Assembly: GCA_045635765.1 (NCBI GenBank)
Contig: JAZTWH010000011.1
Span: 4,411-68,410, forward strand
Direction of reading: 5' to 3'
Length of the DNA stretch: 64,000 nucleotides
Source: Eubacteriales bacterium
Lineage (GTDB): Bacteria; Bacillota; Clostridia; Oscillospirales; UBA644
Of the stretch, positions 2,433 to 63,979 are shown piece by piece. The notes below the pieces were generated by a model. The model was not told where the DNA came from, did no database searches, and saw nothing but the letters and a program-made list of their open reading frames with translations. The position numbers and the translations under genes are program-made. Each line of letters starts with the position of its first letter. Position 1 is the first letter of the stretch.

Positions 2433-3440
2433 ATGATGAAACGGTTCAAAGGGCTTAAGATTTTGGCCATGATTTTAGGGACGGTTTTGGTGTTTTTCTT
2501 GGTCATCAACCTGATTCCCCCGACTAAGGTGACTCAACAGAATCCCTTCGTGGTCGGCGATGGAGACCTGCCCATGGTGGCGGCTCACCGGGGTGGCGGA
2601 GCCTGTAACCCGGAAAACACCATGCTTGCCTTCCGGGAAGCGGTGAACACCTACCGGGTGGATATCATCGAAAGCGATCTGTACTTAACCAAGGACGGGT
2701 ATTTGGTCTACAATCACGATGCCTACATCGATGAGACCTGCAACGTCAACGGGGATCTGACCCTGGATCAGGTCAAGGCTCTGTGCGAGAAGGAAGAAAA
2801 CCGTCACTACATTTCCGACCTGACCCTGGCAGAGCTGGAGCAATACAATTTCGGGTATTATTTTGAACGGGACGGCCAGCGGATCTATAAGGACGTCACC
2901 GACGTTGCCGCCGCCGGTTTGCAGATTGCGACGGCAGATAAGCTGTTTGAAGAATTCTATCAGTCGAATTCCGATTTGTTGTTCATCGTGGAGATCAAAA
3001 ACAGCGGGGAACAGGGACTCGAAGCCTGCCGGATCCTCAACGAAGCCTTGGAGCCCTATCCCCAATACCGCAACCAAATCGTCATCGGCACCTTCCACCA
3101 AGAGGTGGAGCAGGAATTGAAGGAGAAATATCCCCATCTGATGCGGGGGGCCTCCGAGGCCTCTGCCGGGGATTTCATCAAGACCCTTCTGCTTGGGGTG
3201 AATCTCTTTGACGACAGTGATTTCGTTTGCCTGCAGATTCCTTTGACCTACGATGTGGGCTTTGATCTTCCCTTGACCCTAAAACCCATCGTAAGCCGTG
3301 CCCATCGGCGGAATATGGCGGTGCAGTACTGGACCATCAACGACGCCGACGATATGCGTAAACTCATCGACCTGAGATGCGACTGCATCATGACCGACAA
3401 CCCTCAATTGCTGCAGCAGGTGTTGGAGGAATACCGATAA
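2433..3440 (+). CDS. glycerophosphodiester phosphodiesterase (GDPD) family protein with N-terminal membrane anchor
   Basis: VAAHRGGGACNPENTMLAFREAV...IESDLYLTKDGYLVYNHD is the GDPD catalytic signature. An N-terminal hydrophobic segment is present. Confidence 0.85.
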   Translation: MMKRFKGLKILAMILGTVLVFFLVINLIPPTKVTQQNPFVVGDGDLPMVAAHRGGGACNPENTMLAFREAVNTYRVDIIESDLYLTKDGYLVYNHDAYIDETCNVNGDLTLDQVKALCEKEENRHYISDLTLAELEQYNFGYYFERDGQRIYKDVTDVAAAGLQIATADKLFEEFYQSNSDLLFIVEIKNSGEQGLEACRILNEALEPYPQYRNQIVIGTFHQEVEQELKEKYPHLMRGASEASAGDFIKTLLLGVNLFDDSDFVCLQIPLTYDVGFDLPLTLKPIVSRAHRRNMAVQYWTINDADDMRKLIDLRCDCIMTDNPQLLQQVLEEYR

Positions 3441-3456
3441 GAAACGAGATGAACGG

Positions 3457-4185
3457 ATGTTCTACGGAAAAATGAAAGCGGTGACCTTCAGCTACGACGA
3501 CGGCACCGTCCAGGATATTCGCCTGGCAGAGATGTTTCACAAATATGGATTGAAGGCCACCTTTAATCTTAATTCCGGATTGCTGGGCAAGCCCGGCCAG
3601 CTGATTCGGGAGGGCGTGGTGGTGGATCATACCAAAAATAATCCGGCGGATGTTCCTCATATTTACGCGGGGCATGAAATTGCCGGGCATACCCTGAAGC
3701 ATCCCCGCCTTCCCGAGATCGAAGACGATGTGGAAGTGATCCGCCAGGTGGAGGAGGACCGTCTGCGTTTGTCAGAGATCGCCGGCTATGAGGTGGTGGG
3801 CTTTGCGTACCCCTGCGGCGGCGTCAACAACGATGAACGGGTGGCGGAATTGATCCGTAAGCACACCGGAGTGCGTTACTGTCGGACCATTACCGGCAAT
3901 GATTCCTTTGATCTCCAATCAAACCTCTATCGGTTCAATCCCACGGTGCACCATCACCGGGATCCGGAAAAAATGCTTGCATTGGCAGAGAAATTTCTGT
4001 CTCTGAAGCCGGAGACCCCGCAGATTTTCTATATTTGGGGCCATGCCTTTGAGTTTGACGTGAAGGACAACTGGGGCTGGTTTGAAGAATTTTTGCAAAC
4101 TATCTCCGGCAAAGACGACGTTTTTTACGGCACCAATCGAGAGGTCCTGCTATGCCAGCCGGCACAGACAACTCCCAAGAAGTAG
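3457..4185 (+). CDS. polysaccharide deacetylase (NodB homology) family protein
   Basis: TFSYDDG...ATFNL...GHEIAGHTLKHP motifs are typical of CE4/NodB deacetylases. Confidence 0.8.
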   Translation: MFYGKMKAVTFSYDDGTVQDIRLAEMFHKYGLKATFNLNSGLLGKPGQLIREGVVVDHTKNNPADVPHIYAGHEIAGHTLKHPRLPEIEDDVEVIRQVEEDRLRLSEIAGYEVVGFAYPCGGVNNDERVAELIRKHTGVRYCRTITGNDSFDLQSNLYRFNPTVHHHRDPEKMLALAEKFLSLKPETPQIFYIWGHAFEFDVKDNWGWFEEFLQTISGKDDVFYGTNREVLLCQPAQTTPKK

Positions 4186-33682: not shown

Positions 33683-33711
33683 TTGACAACGGGTGGTATT
33701 TATGGTATAAT
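33683..33711 (+). promoter_or_regulatory. perfect sigma-A promoter TTGACA-N17-TATAAT
   Basis: TTGACA 33683-33688, 17-nt spacer, TATAAT 33706-33711. This gives a leader of about 205 nt before the CorC/HlyC gene. Confidence 0.75.
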
Positions 33712-33717
33712 AAGACT

Positions 33718-33885
33718 CAACGACGGAGAAGCATCTCCGAACAACGAAAGAGACGGTGAAAGCGGAATGGACGATTGCGGCAGTAGGGCGGGGCAGCCCC
33801 CCAACCCTTCGGGTGCATACCATCTGCTTTTGTAAGTGAATACGGGCATATCCGAGGATTTGGATATGTCCGTTTGTCGTTTTTA
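33718..33885 (+). promoter_or_regulatory. structured 5' leader ending in an intrinsic terminator (candidate riboswitch/attenuator, class unassigned)
   Basis: Hairpin CGGAGA-AGCA-TCTCCG, the motif GACGGTGAAAGCGGAATGGAC, GC-rich helix GGGCGGGGCAGCCCCCC, and terminator ACGGGCATATCC-GAGGATTT-GGATATGTCCGT plus TTGTCGTTTTT (33842-33885), located 37 nt before the start codon. Confidence 0.5.
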
Positions 33886-33922
33886 AATTGATTTTTACGA
33901 AGGAATTGAGGATATTTTTATT

Positions 33923-35224
33923 ATGCTTGGAGCGATACTGCTACAAATTTTTCTAATCGTGCTCAACGCAATTTTTGCCAGTGCGGAGACGGCGATGATT
34001 TCGTCCAACGCCGCCCGGATCGAGCACCTTGCCGCCGAGGGGGATAAACGGGCCAAGCGGCTGTTGTCTCTCACCGCAAACCCTTCCCGCTTTTTATCGA
34101 CGGTGCAGGTCGCCATTACCCTGGCCGGATTCCTGGGAAGTGCTTATGCCGCCGAGAACTTTGCGGAGCCCCTGGTGGGGGTTCTGTTGGGGCTGGGGGT
34201 TCCCCTTTCGGAGGGGGTCCTGGATTCGGTCTGCGTTTTCCTGATCACCATTCTGCTGTCCTATTTCAGCATCGTGTTCGGGGAACTGGTGCCCAAACGG
34301 GTTTCACTGAAGGATCCCGATCAATCGGCACTGCGTCTTTCCGGCCTTCTTTACTTCGTTTCCTGCATCTTCCTTCCCTTCGTGTGGATTTTGACCAAAT
34401 CCACCAACGGGGTCTTGCGGATGATGCGGATTGACCCCGATGAATCCGACGACGAGGTAACGGAAGAAGAAATTCGCATGATGTTGGAATCGGGAAGCGA
34501 AAAGGGCACCATCGATAAGGCGGAGACCGAGATGATCCGCAATATTTTTGAGTTCGACGATACGGATCTGAGTGAAATTTGCACCCATCGGCGGGACGTT
34601 GTGATTTTGTACGAAGAGGAAAGTGCGGAGACCTGGAAGAAGATTCTTCACGAGACCCGGTTCTCCTTCTATCCCATCTGCGGAGAGACCGCCGACGATA
34701 TTCGGGGCGTTTTGGATGCGGATAAATTTTTCCGTGCCGCCGGCGAGATGGATTTTGAATCCGCCGTGGCCGCCGCCCGGATCAAGCCCATGTTTGTGCC
34801 CGAACACGGGAAGGCGGACGTCTTGTTCTCCAAAATGAAGGAAACGGGAGAGACCTTCGCCGTTTTGATCGACGAATACGGTGGAATGCAGGGTGTGGTC
34901 ACCTTTTACGATCTGTTGGACTGCCTTGTGGGGAATCTGCGGGGCCGGGAGGCGGAGGAGATCCGCTTCGGCGGAGAAGACCGGTGGATCGTCTCCGGGT
35001 CTGCGTCCCCTGCGTCCGTGGCGGAAGCCCTTGGGGTGGAATTGGACGCGGAGGGCTATGAAACCTTTGGCGGGTACGTGCTGGATCTTTTGGGCACCAT
35101 TCCCGAAGACGGTTCCACCCCCGCCACCGAAACCGACGCCTTGCAGTTGCAGGTGACAAAGGTCTCCGACCGCCGCATTGAATCGGTGACCGTGACCAAA
35201 AAAAACCGAATGGAAGAAGCCTGA
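33923..35224 (+). CDS. HlyC/CorC (CNNM) family transporter: DUF21 membrane domain, CBS pair, CorC_HlyC domain
   Basis: N-terminus ILLQIFLIVLNAIFASAETAMIS... (DUF21), a central CBS pair, and a C-terminal CorC_HlyC-like domain (GGYVLDLLGTIPEDG...). Confidence 0.85.
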   Translation: MLGAILLQIFLIVLNAIFASAETAMISSNAARIEHLAAEGDKRAKRLLSLTANPSRFLSTVQVAITLAGFLGSAYAAENFAEPLVGVLLGLGVPLSEGVLDSVCVFLITILLSYFSIVFGELVPKRVSLKDPDQSALRLSGLLYFVSCIFLPFVWILTKSTNGVLRMMRIDPDESDDEVTEEEIRMMLESGSEKGTIDKAETEMIRNIFEFDDTDLSEICTHRRDVVILYEEESAETWKKILHETRFSFYPICGETADDIRGVLDADKFFRAAGEMDFESAVAAARIKPMFVPEHGKADVLFSKMKETGETFAVLIDEYGGMQGVVTFYDLLDCLVGNLRGREAEEIRFGGEDRWIVSGSASPASVAEALGVELDAEGYETFGGYVLDLLGTIPEDGSTPATETDALQLQVTKVSDRRIESVTVTKKNRMEEA

Positions 35225-35384: not shown

Positions 35385-35909
35385 ATGAATGACATGATTC
35401 AATCCGCATATCCCAAAGGAGGGATGGCCCAGCCCGGGTTTGGAGGGGGAGCTTCCGAAAGCGTGGCCGGAATTCTTGGTATCATTTTTATTGTGTTAGG
35501 CATCGCCATTGCCCTTGCCGCCGTAGTTTTCTGGATTATTTCCTGGTGGCGGATCTATACCAAGGCCGGAAGACCCGGTTGGGCGAATCTGATTCCCGTG
35601 TACTGTTACGTTGAGCTGTTTCAGGTTGCTTGGGGGAATGGGGCCTACTTCCTGTTCATGCTGATCCCAGGGGTAAATATTCTCGTGGCCATTCTCACCG
35701 TCCAGAAATTGTCCGAGTCCTTTGGTCACGGCCTTGGCTTTACCCTCGGTCTGTTCTTTTTCCCCTACATCTTTGTCCTCATTTTGGGATTGGGAAAATC
35801 TAAGCACGTCCGCTATCAGAAGAAATTAGCGGAAACGGCTTTATTGCAGGGCCAGGGAACGGCCGGTGCCCCGTCAGAAGAGGGCAATGTCCCTGTTTCT
35901 TTGGGATAA
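35385..35909 (+). CDS. DUF5684-like small membrane protein
   Basis: WWRIYTKAGRPGWANLIPVYCYVELFQVAWGNG motif typical of this family. 4 hydrophobic segments. Confidence 0.65.
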   Translation: MNDMIQSAYPKGGMAQPGFGGGASESVAGILGIIFIVLGIAIALAAVVFWIISWWRIYTKAGRPGWANLIPVYCYVELFQVAWGNGAYFLFMLIPGVNILVAILTVQKLSESFGHGLGFTLGLFFFPYIFVLILGLGKSKHVRYQKKLAETALLQGQGTAGAPSEEGNVPVSLG

Positions 35910-35931
35910 TCCGTCCCCGTAAAATTGTAGT

Positions 35932-35962
35932 GGGAGACCGCCTTTTGCGGTCTCCCTTTTTC
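35932..35962 (+). terminator. intrinsic terminator
   Basis: GGGAGACCGC-CTTTTG-GCGGTCTCCC followed by TTTTT. Confidence 0.8.
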
Positions 35963-35964
35963 TC

Positions 35965-36180
35965 AAAATAAGATCAGCAGGGAGCATTACGGCTTCCTGC
36001 TGATCTTGGATTTTCTATGAAAAAATTCTTTGTTTGTGGGCGGTTACGATTGCCGTCCCTAAGAACGGCAACCATAAACACCCAAACACACAACAAACAT
36101 CACAAGGAGTAAGTGGCGGAGAACAAAAGTTTTGCTGGCGAAGGACTCCCCGTGCGTGTGTTTGGCCCTTTCATTCTCTA
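35965..36180 (-). ncRNA. candidate stand-alone small RNA (about 215 nt) with its own consensus promoter and terminator; class unknown
   Basis: Minus strand has TTGACA (36214-36209), 17 nt, TATAAT (36191-36186). The transcript contains a long imperfect rod (CCAAACACAC...CACGGGGAGU...ACUCCUUGUG...GUGUGUUUGG), a second hairpin (GGUUGCCGU-UCUUAGGG-ACGGCAAUC) and a terminal hairpin AGAUCAGCAGG...CCUGCUGAUCU plus UAUUUU (35971-36006). No downstream gene lies on that strand. Confidence 0.4.
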
Positions 36181-36185
36181 CGGCT

Positions 36186-36214
36186 ATTATACCCTATTTT
36201 CCGTTGATTGTCAA
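36186..36214 (-). promoter_or_regulatory. perfect sigma-A promoter TTGACA-N17-TATAAT with no downstream CDS
   Basis: Reverse complement of 36181-36220 is TCCCTCTTGACAATCAACGGAAAATAGGGTATAATAGCCG. Confidence 0.65.
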
Positions 36215-36242
36215 GAGGGAGGGGCGATTCTTCACGAAATAG

Positions 36243-37367
36243 TCAATTTTTCCAAATTCCGGAGATGTCCAGGAGGTTTTCGATTCCGAACCGGCGTTTG
36301 ATCAGTTCCAAAAACAACAGACCGCAGGCAAAGGCGTCGGCACTGGACCGGTGGGCACCGGAAAACAAAATAGCACAGTATTTGCAGGCCTCGGAGAGCT
36401 TGTAACCGGGAAGTTTATTTCCTTCCTTGTCCCGAAGAAGCTCTCGGGCAAGGGGCAAGGTGTCAAAGACCTGCCTTCCGGCGGTGGGAAACCCTTCCTT
36501 TGCCAGCATCCGCAGATCGAAGGGGGCGTTGTGGGCTACCAAGGGGAATCGGTCGGTAAATTCGTCCAAGGCCGGGATGATTTCGGCAAAGCGAGGTGCT
36601 TGACGAACCATTTCGTTGGTGATCCCGTTGACGGCGGTGGCCTCGGGGGAGATGCGGCGGTAGGGCTTGCACAAGGTTTCCCACAGGGCCGTAGGGCGGA
36701 ACCCTTCAAATTTGACGGCGGATACCTCCACGATCTCCGCACTTGTCCCCAAGGACGAGGTCTCAGTGTCGATGGCGACGAAATTTCCCAGCTCCCAAGG
36801 GGTGCATCCGGCAAAGGTTTTCAGGATCACACACTCCGGCTTCCCCGGGGGTGCATCGCAGGGGATTCGCTGGATGGAAACTGACGGAAGGGCGGAAAAC
36901 ATACACTCAAATTCCGCCAGATAATAATCCACCACATTGTATTCGGAGGGATAGGTGTCGTGGGCCGTGGTCAGATACCGATGGACGACCTTTTCCGCAT
37001 CAAGCAGCGGCCCCTTCCGGGATCGGGTCGAATGAATAGAGGGGGCCGCAGCGAGAATGGAATCCCCGGAGTGGGAGACAGAAACGGAAGCCGCGGAAGT
37101 ACCGGCTTTGGAATGAGAGGCAGAAACGGAAGCCGCGGAAGTACCGGCTCGGGCTCCGGAATGAGAGACAGAAACGGAAGCCGCGGAACCCCCGGCTTTG
37201 GAATGGGAGATGAAAGAATGGGAGACGGAAACGCCGGCTTTGGAATGGGTTGCGGAGGGAGCGTCTTTTTGGTTTCGTGGAAGGGATTTTTGGCAAAGGA
37301 TGCAAAGCCCCCGGTCGTCTACCGTGACAAAGGGGCCCGAGATTCCGCAACGGATACATTTACCCAT
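36243..37367 (-). CDS. DEDDh 3'-5' exonuclease domain protein with N-terminal zinc ribbon and Ser/Ala-rich tandem repeats
   Basis: CIRCG...CILCQ zinc ribbon. Repeats (SHSKAGTSAASVSV) x about 4. Exo motifs FVAIDTETSS, VAHNAPFDLRML and GAHRSSADA. The start overlaps the ABC gene stop by 8 nt. Confidence 0.8.
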   Translation of the reverse strand: MGKCIRCGISGPFVTVDDRGLCILCQKSLPRNQKDAPSATHSKAGVSVSHSFISHSKAGGSAASVSVSHSGARAGTSAASVSASHSKAGTSAASVSVSHSGDSILAAAPSIHSTRSRKGPLLDAEKVVHRYLTTAHDTYPSEYNVVDYYLAEFECMFSALPSVSIQRIPCDAPPGKPECVILKTFAGCTPWELGNFVAIDTETSSLGTSAEIVEVSAVKFEGFRPTALWETLCKPYRRISPEATAVNGITNEMVRQAPRFAEIIPALDEFTDRFPLVAHNAPFDLRMLAKEGFPTAGRQVFDTLPLARELLRDKEGNKLPGYKLSEACKYCAILFSGAHRSSADAFACGLLFLELIKRRFGIENLLDISGIWKN

Positions 37368-63510: not shown

Positions 63511-63682
63511 AACGTGTCTCTTTCCCGGTTCCCTGTATGGAATCTTCGTTGCCGGGGAAAAGATTAAAATTTTCTTAAAATTGGTACTTTTTTGTGAAGG
63601 CCCTTGTCTTGAACGATTTTTTGGTTTATAATGAAAAAAAGAACACTTTTACACAACAAACGGTCAAAGGAGGGCACCTTGG

Positions 63683-63979
63683 ATGAAATTTTTAGAGGCC
63701 ATGAGCAAGCTGAAAGCATTTTTTGATTTATTTAAGAGATCCCGATCCGATTCTCCCTCTGACGGGAATTCCAGCGGGAAGGGCAGAAGGACGGCGTTGA
63801 TCGTTTCTCTGGTTCTTTCGGGGATTGTCATCTTGGTGGGGGCGGCCCTCTTGATCCGAAAGCTTAAGCAACGCCGATTGGAAAAGGAAGCCAAGGAAGC
63901 GTTGGACTCGTACTATTCCACCGATTTCGACGCAGACGAATACCCCGAGGACGACGAAGAAGACAACTCCATTTCATAA
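63683..63979 (+). CDS. small single-pass membrane protein with acidic C-terminus, function unknown
   Basis: RBS AAAGGAGGG is present. One TM helix (ALIVSLVLSGIVILVGAALLI) and an acidic tail DADEYPEDDEEDN. Confidence 0.5.
   Translation: MKFLEAMSKLKAFFDLFKRSRSDSPSDGNSSGKGRRTALIVSLVLSGIVILVGAALLIRKLKQRRLEKEAKEALDSYYSTDFDADEYPEDDEEDNSIS

Follow-up and report, generated by a model that had tools for sequence, protein, structure and literature searches.

The stretch of DNA analysed here (64,000 nucleotides (nt) of contig JAZTWH010000011.1, from a Eubacteriales bacterium; hereafter the window) carries on its minus strand, directly after the gene of a DEDDh exonuclease, a transcription unit of about 215 nt that holds no protein-coding gene. 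Comparison with related loci left us highly confident that this unit is a real, conserved, stand-alone noncoding RNA gene whose family is absent from Rfam. The family was previously undescribed and has uncultured gut Clostridia as its host range; we read it as a new one among the base-pairing small RNAs (sRNAs), themselves a known class. The RNA probably switches off mRNAs by pairing with them. As to how, we assign a probability of about one half to the reading that it is a repressor resembling the enterobacterial sRNA GcvB, with a seed that is gated by the RNA itself. The interest of the RNA rests on its invariance, on the apparent convergence with the GcvB seed in a Gram-positive anaerobe, and on its strict linkage to the exonuclease gene.

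The unit begins with a perfect sigma-70-type promoter (36186-36214, minus strand), consisting of TTGACA (36214-36209), a 17-nt spacer and TATAAT (36191-36186). The original prediction, made from the letters of the window alone, had placed this promoter 29 nt after the exonuclease stop codon (36245-36243, minus strand); the promoter is present, and the distance from the stop codon to the start of its -35 hexamer was measured as 28 nt. Perfect TTGACA-N17-TATAAT sequences occurred 8 times in the window versus 0 times in 100 dinucleotide shuffles. The remaining seven each lie upstream of a real gene, as had been claimed, among them the genes of MreB (43828, minus), a tRNA (41126, plus), FeoA of a FeoA-FeoB pair (58116, plus), a CNNM protein (33923, plus) and three others. 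At about 215 nt, the predicted transcript spans 35965-36179 on the minus strand, with its 5’ end at A36179 as judged from the -10 hexamer and its 3’ end as judged from the terminator T run. The terminator hairpin of the original prediction was recovered by a terminator search as a 17-bp stem (36008-35969) followed by UUUU, together occupying 35965-36008 on the minus strand. Folding of the RNA (36180-35965) gave -83.5 kcal/mol versus -54.2 ± 4.3 kcal/mol for shuffled sequences (z = -6.8). Apart from the RNA gene, the density of full-consensus promoters across the window is itself unusually high, at 8 per 64 kb with 0 expected.

Loci of relatives were gathered through homology of the exonuclease, in species-representative genomes and public assemblies. 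This yielded 17 loci with exonucleases 53-80% identical to that of the window, falling into 12 clusters at 75% identity; two of the loci are cut by contig ends. An RNA homologue directly follows the exonuclease gene in all 17 of these loci (18 of 18 with the window). Each exonuclease gene of these loci has its RNA, and sampling led by the exonuclease does not imply the converse, that each RNA has an exonuclease. One locus only (L038, truncated, with its sequence cut at the RNA) was reached from the RNA side, by a second metagenome search pattern. A metagenome scan with a 22-mer gave 0 matches, though the contig of locus L022, from the Joint Genome Institute (JGI), carries the 22-mer; the scanned collection is without these samples. 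No match to the RNA was found in the phages, plasmids and viral contigs searched, and the E. coli genomes searched gave chance matches only (E ~6) and no likeness to rRNA. A literature search by sequence and keywords found no description of the RNA.

The homologues comprised 14 distinct RNA sequences, the window included, from which an alignment and a model of the RNA family with 157 positions were built. Promoter, RNA and terminator are kept together in all 14, bearing out the claim of a structured RNA unit without a gene. The promoter hexamers and their 17-nt spacing are invariant throughout, and the spacer sequence varies. A terminator follows the RNA in 12 of the 12 homologues with enough downstream sequence, as a stem and T run 15-75 nt past the second hairpin (P2, described below); these terminators are unrelated in sequence, have runs of 6-8 U that are compatible with Hfq binding and not diagnostic of it, and in L037 the contig stops within the terminator stem. 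Upstream of the promoter lies a conserved element of 19 nt, TGACTATTTCGTGAAGAAT (36227-36245, minus strand), which aligns without gaps in all homologues at a fixed distance to the -35 hexamer. Its first three nucleotides are the exonuclease stop codon in most loci, and the element is retained in L021-L023 though the stop codon there sits 17-26 nt farther upstream. The element is possibly a site for a regulator. Against the CodY box (AATTTTCWGAAAATT), the copy at L021:3375-3393 (TGTTTTGTGAAAATT) matches at 12 of 15 positions and the window version at 10 of 15; if this likeness were real, the sRNA would be tied to amino-acid status.

The most striking property of the RNA is an invariant core of 52 nt (36067-36118, minus strand; columns 70-121 of alignment A3, corresponding to 36118-36067 of the window). 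Only 3 of its 52 columns vary, each in a single sequence, for a mean identity of 0.992, compared with 0.657 in the last 480 nt of the exonuclease gene, 0.69 in the 5’ loop region and 0.50 in the hairpin apex. In order, the core comprises a linker (CGCCACUU), a segment c’ resembling an anti-Shine-Dalgarno sequence (ACUCCUUGUG, 36110-36101), AUGUUUGUU, a segment b’ (GUGUGUUUGG, 36091-36082) and GGGUGUUUAUGGUUGCC. It is rich in G and U, and at 36105-36082 it contains the seed resembling region R1 of GcvB, which forms an 11-nt imperfect direct repeat. A core identity of 99.2% beside 66% in the neighbouring gene is as expected for a seed common to many targets. The RNA is conserved at the level of tRNA and rRNA across the whole clade. 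This core and its likeness to GcvB had been overlooked in the original prediction, as had the constant attachment to the exonuclease gene, in view of which the unit can be called an orphan solely for want of an open reading frame (ORF).

No evidence of coding capacity was obtained. On neither strand did the 14 sequences share a start, frame or length of any ORF. The 24-codon ORF of the window has lost its ATG in 8 of 14 homologues, and the frames are not the same. Both this ORF and another small one on the RNA strand, beginning MFVVCLGVYGC, as well as the antisense ORFs, were rejected as genes on the grounds that start, frame and length were not conserved. With its own promoter, an intrinsic terminator, no ORF and conservation as a unit, the locus has features of a stand-alone sRNA gene. 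Nor did it belong to a known family. The original prediction had seen no signature of the signal recognition particle RNA, 6S RNA, tmRNA or RNase P and had suggested cmscan against Rfam, and the search of Rfam 15 at the gathering score assigned the RNA to no family and gave no GcvB hit in the window. Relaxing the threshold to E<=10 over 35850-36300 returned 21 hits, all chance-level hairpins far below the family thresholds and none of them GcvB. Specific identities were considered and rejected. The covariance models of 6S RNA, the signal recognition particle RNA, tmRNA and RNase P did not match, and, unlike in 6S RNA, the 5’ end pairs with an internal segment instead of the 3’ end. A type III antitoxin of the ToxI kind would be a tandem array of repeat units upstream of its toxin gene, whereas this RNA has just a two-copy 11-nt imperfect repeat, within the seed, and lies downstream of the protein gene; PADLOC at the locus reported a generic DEDDh hit only. 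A cis-regulatory leader or riboswitch was rejected because the downstream gene differs among loci or is convergent (window, L022 and L033).

Indeed, the outer neighbours change on both sides, which rules out a cis-acting leader. Upstream they include an ABC transporter, a divergent ArgS, an MBOAT protein and a 23S-rRNA-IVP protein; downstream they include a convergent DUF5684 gene, NrdD, a V-ATPase operon, a convergent FeoB, a phosphoribosyltransferase and a convergent transposase fragment. In no locus does a LysR-type regulator adjoin the RNA.

The structure of the RNA was examined by counting pairs on a MAFFT alignment and on a model-guided alignment (A6). Starting one nucleotide past the predicted transcript start, the 5’ strand of helix a (GAGAAUGAAAG, 36168-36178, minus strand) pairs with a pyrimidine-rich strand a’ (CUUUUGUUCUC, 36119-36129, minus strand), as seen in the pair counts of both alignments. 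Four of its 11 pairs have changed on both sides and 93.5% of cells are paired. Helix a2 extends it by GGC (36165-36167, minus strand) pairing with GCC (36137-36139), is 100% paired on A6 with GC, UA and GU variants, and is separated on its 3’ side from a’ by an asymmetric loop, AGCAAAA (36130-36136). The hairpin P2 (36038-36083, minus strand) has the base GGGUG/CGCCC, a stem of UAUGGUUGCCGU (36076-36065) with ACGGCAAUCGUA (36056-36045), and an apex that differs in sequence and length while keeping its pairing. All 12 of its pairs are 100% paired, 6 of 14 sequences showing a compensatory switch from G-C to U-A, and its 3’ strand (GGCAAUCGUA) is invariant. Overall, 97-98% of cells were paired versus 42-55% when the 3’ partners were slid by 1-3 columns, and the covariation score was reached by 0 of 500 shuffles. 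The second hairpin of the original prediction is thereby supported by covariation. Its proposed alternative pairing of GUUUGUUGUGUGUUUGGG with CCCACAAACAAAG did not hold as drawn; only GGGUG/CRCCC is conserved, and this forms the base of the same hairpin. When the window sequence is folded alone, a closing stem AUGAAAGGG/UUUUUUCAU forms; it was discarded as confined to the window.

The long imperfect helix that had been described, with arms CCAAACACAC/GUGUGUUUGG and CACGGGGAGU/ACUCCUUGUG, was found as well, and its complementarity is kept in 14 of 14 sequences. It joins two segments of the 5’ hairpin loop, b (CCAAACACAC, 36165-36156) and c (CACGGGGAGU, 36154-36145), to b’ and c’ of the core. 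Helix b/b’ is 98.8% paired, and every change in it is one-sided and preserves pairing (A-U to G-U, G-U to A-U). Segment c is variable and forms a duplex of 8-11 bp with the invariant c’ in 14 of 14 sequences. Because the 3’ strands are invariant, only one-sided changes are possible in these helices. The covariation check which had been suggested came out in favour of helices a, a2 and P2. Together, segments b and c (36145-36165, minus strand) make up a stretch complementary to the core that is rich in C and A and then resembles a Shine-Dalgarno (SD) sequence (AAGGAG). We termed it a pseudo-target because it has the same make-up as the predicted mRNA site at 63641-63676 described below.

Helix a/a’, in which the 5’ end pairs with the stretch upstream of the core, had escaped the original prediction. 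It crosses both b/b’ and c/c’ and so competes with the long helix. By our own geometric estimate, a, b and c are unlikely to form all at once as a full pseudoknot, as the linkers are too short (0-3 nt from a2 to b and 8 nt from a’ to c’). Constrained alternative folds differ by 0.2-6 kcal/mol in 14 of 14 sequences. Given these near-equal energies and the improbable pseudoknot, the two folds were treated as alternative states. In the modelled open state the 5’ hairpin would be formed and would hold b and c in its loop, leaving the core single-stranded; in the modelled closed state the core would be paired to b and c.

GcvB (RF00022) is found in Enterobacteriaceae, Pasteurellaceae and Vibrionaceae, where its gene is divergent from gcvA and controlled by GcvA/GcvR, and it represses many mRNAs for amino-acid and peptide transport or biosynthesis by binding C/A-rich sites. 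We chose it for comparison for its G/U-rich R1 seed, and the gcvB sequence of E. coli K-12 was aligned. Between UUGUGAUGUU-(U)GUUG-UGUGUUUG of the core and R1 of E. coli GcvB (UUGUGAUGUUGUGUUGUUGUGUUUG) there are 23 identities in 23 aligned positions with two gaps of 1 nt, and the alignment score was reached by 2 of 5000 dinucleotide shuffles of the core (p ~0.0004). In the open fold (fold A) the seed is unpaired and P2 directly follows it, which is the layout of R1 in GcvB. What the comparison of genomes supports is that the unit is a gene, that it is conserved and that it has no ORF, together with helices a, a2 and P2 and the resemblance of the seed to that of GcvB.

A candidate target was sought by scanning 31,982 windows on both strands of the 64 kb for duplexes with the core, with the region of the RNA gene excluded. 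The best duplex (-38.1 kcal/mol) was formed with GAACACUUUUACACAACAAACGGUCAAAGGAGGGCA (63641-63676, plus strand), which contains ACACAACA and an SD sequence. This site runs from the 5’ untranslated region (UTR) through the SD of a gene for a 98-residue single-pass membrane protein (63683-63979), which has its own TTGTCT-N17-TATAAT promoter and whose product has no Pfam match. The predicted duplex is imperfect and comprises 33 bp, with the SD in register with CUCCUU of the RNA. Among 52 gene start regions the next best reached -28.6 kcal/mol, the same as the mean best value of shuffled cores, and -38.1 kcal/mol was reached by 0 of 119 dinucleotide-shuffled cores (best, -36.0). The site was the only outlier among 1,024 SD-start contexts from the window and related loci. 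GcvB targets of E. coli and Salmonella have the consensus CACAACAU, those of Pasteurella AACACAACAU (PMC5900567); the predicted site shares with such targets that it is C/A-rich, holds ACACAACA and extends to the SD (PMC5900567). The start region of the exonuclease gene was rejected as a target, since core pairing there is conserved no further than generic SD pairing. Strong duplexes in other loci were antisense to the coding sequence of nrdD or of an ABC transporter and hence were not counted as targets.

The mechanism that we propose is as follows. Transcription of a clade-specific sRNA would start at a consensus sigma-A promoter of its own and stop at the intrinsic terminator. Acting in trans, the RNA’s single-stranded G/U-rich seed and the adjacent anti-SD-like CUCCUU would pair with C/A-rich sequence and the SD in the 5’ UTRs of several mRNAs, and this pairing would block translation initiation. 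In the open fold the 5’ end would form stem a/a2 and leave the seed free, and in the closed fold the pseudo-target in the 5’ hairpin loop would pair with the seed. The pseudo-target may either protect the seed or gate it, such that only mRNAs with long complementarity could displace the mimic. In the genome of the window the best candidate target would be the mRNA of the 98-residue membrane protein. The switch between folds, the pairing with a target and the effect of that pairing are what this model predicts. If correct, the internal pseudo-target would provide a testable model of self-gated seeds. We regard as tentative, and as rather doubtful in its full extent, the broader proposition that Gram-positive gut anaerobes evolved independently, or took up long ago, the solution embodied in GcvB (global regulation by a G/U seed against C/A-rich enhancer and SD regions), and added to it a self-gating pseudo-target and an obligatory genomic, possibly physical, coupling to an exonuclease.

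Several observations weigh against a GcvB-like repressor with a gated seed. GcvB was hand-picked for the comparison, and sequence rich in G and U has low complexity; our own model scored E. coli gcvB at 4.9 bits (E 0.5), and RF00022 gave no significant match to the RNA. The linker and the P2 stem are invariant too, which exceeds the need of a seed, and the minimum-energy fold usually sequesters the seed. A single target was predicted, in one genome of which 64 kb were searched; its gene is not an amino-acid transporter, and no target UTR at 80% likeness was found in the contigs of relatives from metagenomes that hold RNA homologues. The strict linkage to the exonuclease gene is left unexplained. 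As to transcripts, the sequence was held only by assembled contigs from one metatranscriptome (X25) and one library labelled ‘TRANSCRIPTOMIC WGS’ (X36), and these contigs contain promoter DNA as well. Their ends coincide with the conservation boundaries, where the sequences of the species diverge, and we read them as branch points of the assembly graph that are uninformative on transcript ends. The single RNA run available as raw reads (X34) had no reads on the RNA gene. That the gene is transcribed we infer.

The linkage just mentioned is the starting point of an alternative that we consider unlikely, in which the RNA would be a protein-binding partner of the DEDDh exonuclease (a scaffold, guide, inhibitor or substrate mimic) and the core its protein-contact surface. 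In 18 of 18 loci a gene of this exonuclease subfamily precedes the RNA gene although the outer neighbours change, and the invariant part of the RNA extends over 62 nt, with unpaired linkers and a stem among them, as is typical of the RNAs of ribonucleoproteins (RNPs). The constant presence of a DnaQ-like exonuclease beside the RNA may thus be a sign of a new RNA-protein partnership. The protein itself weighs against this reading. Encoded at 36243-37367 on the minus strand, it is a DnaQ/PolC-exo-like DEDDh exonuclease with an N-terminal zinc ribbon (Pfam RNase_T, 2.5e-21). Its matches in NCBIfam, PADLOC and PDB were all domains of the DnaQ/PolC/DinG type; its AlphaFold model (pLDDT, the predicted local distance difference test, 92.7) led Foldseek to DNA-type DEDDh folds only; and its closest relatives are of the DNA proofreading type (PolC-exo, DnaQ, DinG-exo, ExoX and TREX). 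No RNA-binding domain was recognised in the NCBIfam, PADLOC, PDB and Foldseek comparisons, and the N-terminal domain gave no informative structural match in Foldseek. This domain is conserved and is common to homologues without the RNA. Homologues without an RNA comprise zinc-ribbon DEDDh proteins 42-44% identical to that of the window (L026-L030, gene 2501-3508 in each), which occupy prophage-like loci with no RNA gene, and distant homologues in other phyla, likewise with no RNA. The absence of the RNA beside both groups counts in favour of a partnership. Adjacency could, however, reflect a shared terminator, and a protein partner would leave unexplained both the likeness to the GcvB seed and the outlier site in a 5’ UTR.

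Further observations concern the exonuclease gene. In the prophage-like loci L026-L030 the homologue lies directly after a cI-like repressor gene (HTH_3 and Peptidase_S24) with smpB nearby, and a serine recombinase comes next in 3 of the 4 loci L027-L030 (absent there in L029); these homologues look like accessory genes expressed in lysogeny. Within the exonuclease gene of the window, a tandem array with a period of 42 nt (3.3 copies, 37066-37239, minus strand) encodes an insertion rich in Ser, His and Ala. By virtue of this insertion the protein has 374 residues versus 284-304 in its close (at least 53% identical) full-length homologues.

A second alternative, which also appears improbable to us, holds that the RNA has another structured-RNA function, as a ligand or temperature switch, a ribozyme or a sponge for a protein that binds G/U-rich or pyrimidine-rich sequence, and that both the GcvB likeness and the target are coincidental. 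Two folds of near-equal energy are conserved, the sequence conservation is extreme, no family matched, and the evidence for a target came from one genome only, all of which would fit such a function. Outside the core, though, the structure is simple, with one 5’ and one 3’ hairpin and no conserved junction or pseudoknot supported by covariation. Moreover, the seed likeness (p ~0.0004) and the top 5’ UTR site (0 of 119) would both have to be chance. Finally, it is very improbable that the RNA is not a separate gene and is instead a 3’ UTR of the exonuclease, a cis-acting leader or a gene for a small protein: no terminator lies between the exonuclease stop and the RNA, so that read-through is likely, the ‘TRANSCRIPTOMIC WGS’ contig spans the promoter and upstream sequence, and short ORFs exist, but an invariant perfect promoter stands between the stop codon and the RNA in 14 of 14 sequences, and the gene downstream varies or is convergent. 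Nor do the sequences have any ORF, start codon or frame in common on either strand, and coding sequence would not be expected to contain a block of 52 nt that lacks synonymous variation.

The surroundings of the RNA gene showed some further features. Two intrinsic terminators lie back to back 12 nt apart (35932-35956, plus, and 35969-36008, minus) between the convergent DUF5684 and sRNA genes. In locus L024, about 800 nt downstream of the sRNA terminator (L024:2330-3144) hold no called gene. A perfect promoter and a 212-nt leader with a terminator-like hairpin (33842-33873) occupy 33683-33922 on the plus strand, ahead of the gene for a CNNM/CorC-type transporter (33923-35224). This leader had no Rfam match even at E<=0.1, and it may represent an attenuator or riboswitch not described before.

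Clostridia have few known sRNA regulators, and none is known to us from the uncultured ruminant-gut lineages. RNA databases can now take up the present family, which would help to annotate many metagenome-assembled genomes from the gut. Its relation to known systems differs from case to case. OLE RNA, like other RNAs of RNPs, is encoded beside its protein partner, in this case OapA. The Clostridia RNA resembles such RNAs in how strongly its sequence is conserved and in always adjoining the same protein gene; in contrast, it is much smaller and simpler, and its neighbour is a DnaQ-like exonuclease. Type I sRNAs embedded in 3’ UTRs, such as MicL and DapZ, have their own promoter at the end of the upstream gene and share its terminator. 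The same arrangement applies here and might account for why the RNA always lies next to the exonuclease gene, although the promoter lies just past the stop codon and not in the coding sequence, with only the element TGACTATTTCGTGAAGAAT touching the stop. RsaE/RoxS and FsrA are stand-alone sRNAs of Firmicutes whose conserved C/U-rich motifs, in C-rich loops, pair with SD regions. The Clostridia RNA likewise has a stand-alone gene and C/U-rich motifs (CUCCUU and CUUCCCCC), whereas those sRNAs are without a long G/U-rich seed or an internal mimic, and no match to them in sequence or Rfam was found.

The closest parallel is with GcvB itself. Both RNAs are about 200 nt long and have their own promoter and intrinsic terminator, and in the open state both would be laid out as a 5’ hairpin, a G/U-rich linker, a hairpin, a spacer and the terminator. 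They differ in that neither covariance model significantly matched the other RNA, that the host here is a Gram-positive anaerobe, and that the neighbouring gene is a tandem DEDDh exonuclease instead of a divergent gcvA. No R2 region was recognised in the Clostridia RNA, which has in addition a conserved internal pseudo-target able to sequester the seed, and its sole predicted target is a small membrane protein and not an amino-acid or peptide transporter. The likeness is therefore functional and does not amount to family membership. Shared ancestry with GcvB is unlikely, and it is simpler to suppose that the two RNAs converged on one target motif. If the RNA does act in the manner of GcvB, the same logic of a G/U seed against C/A-rich enhancer and SD regions would have arisen in very distant bacteria, which would clearly exemplify convergent evolution among RNA regulators and would offer a handle on the translational enhancers of Firmicutes.

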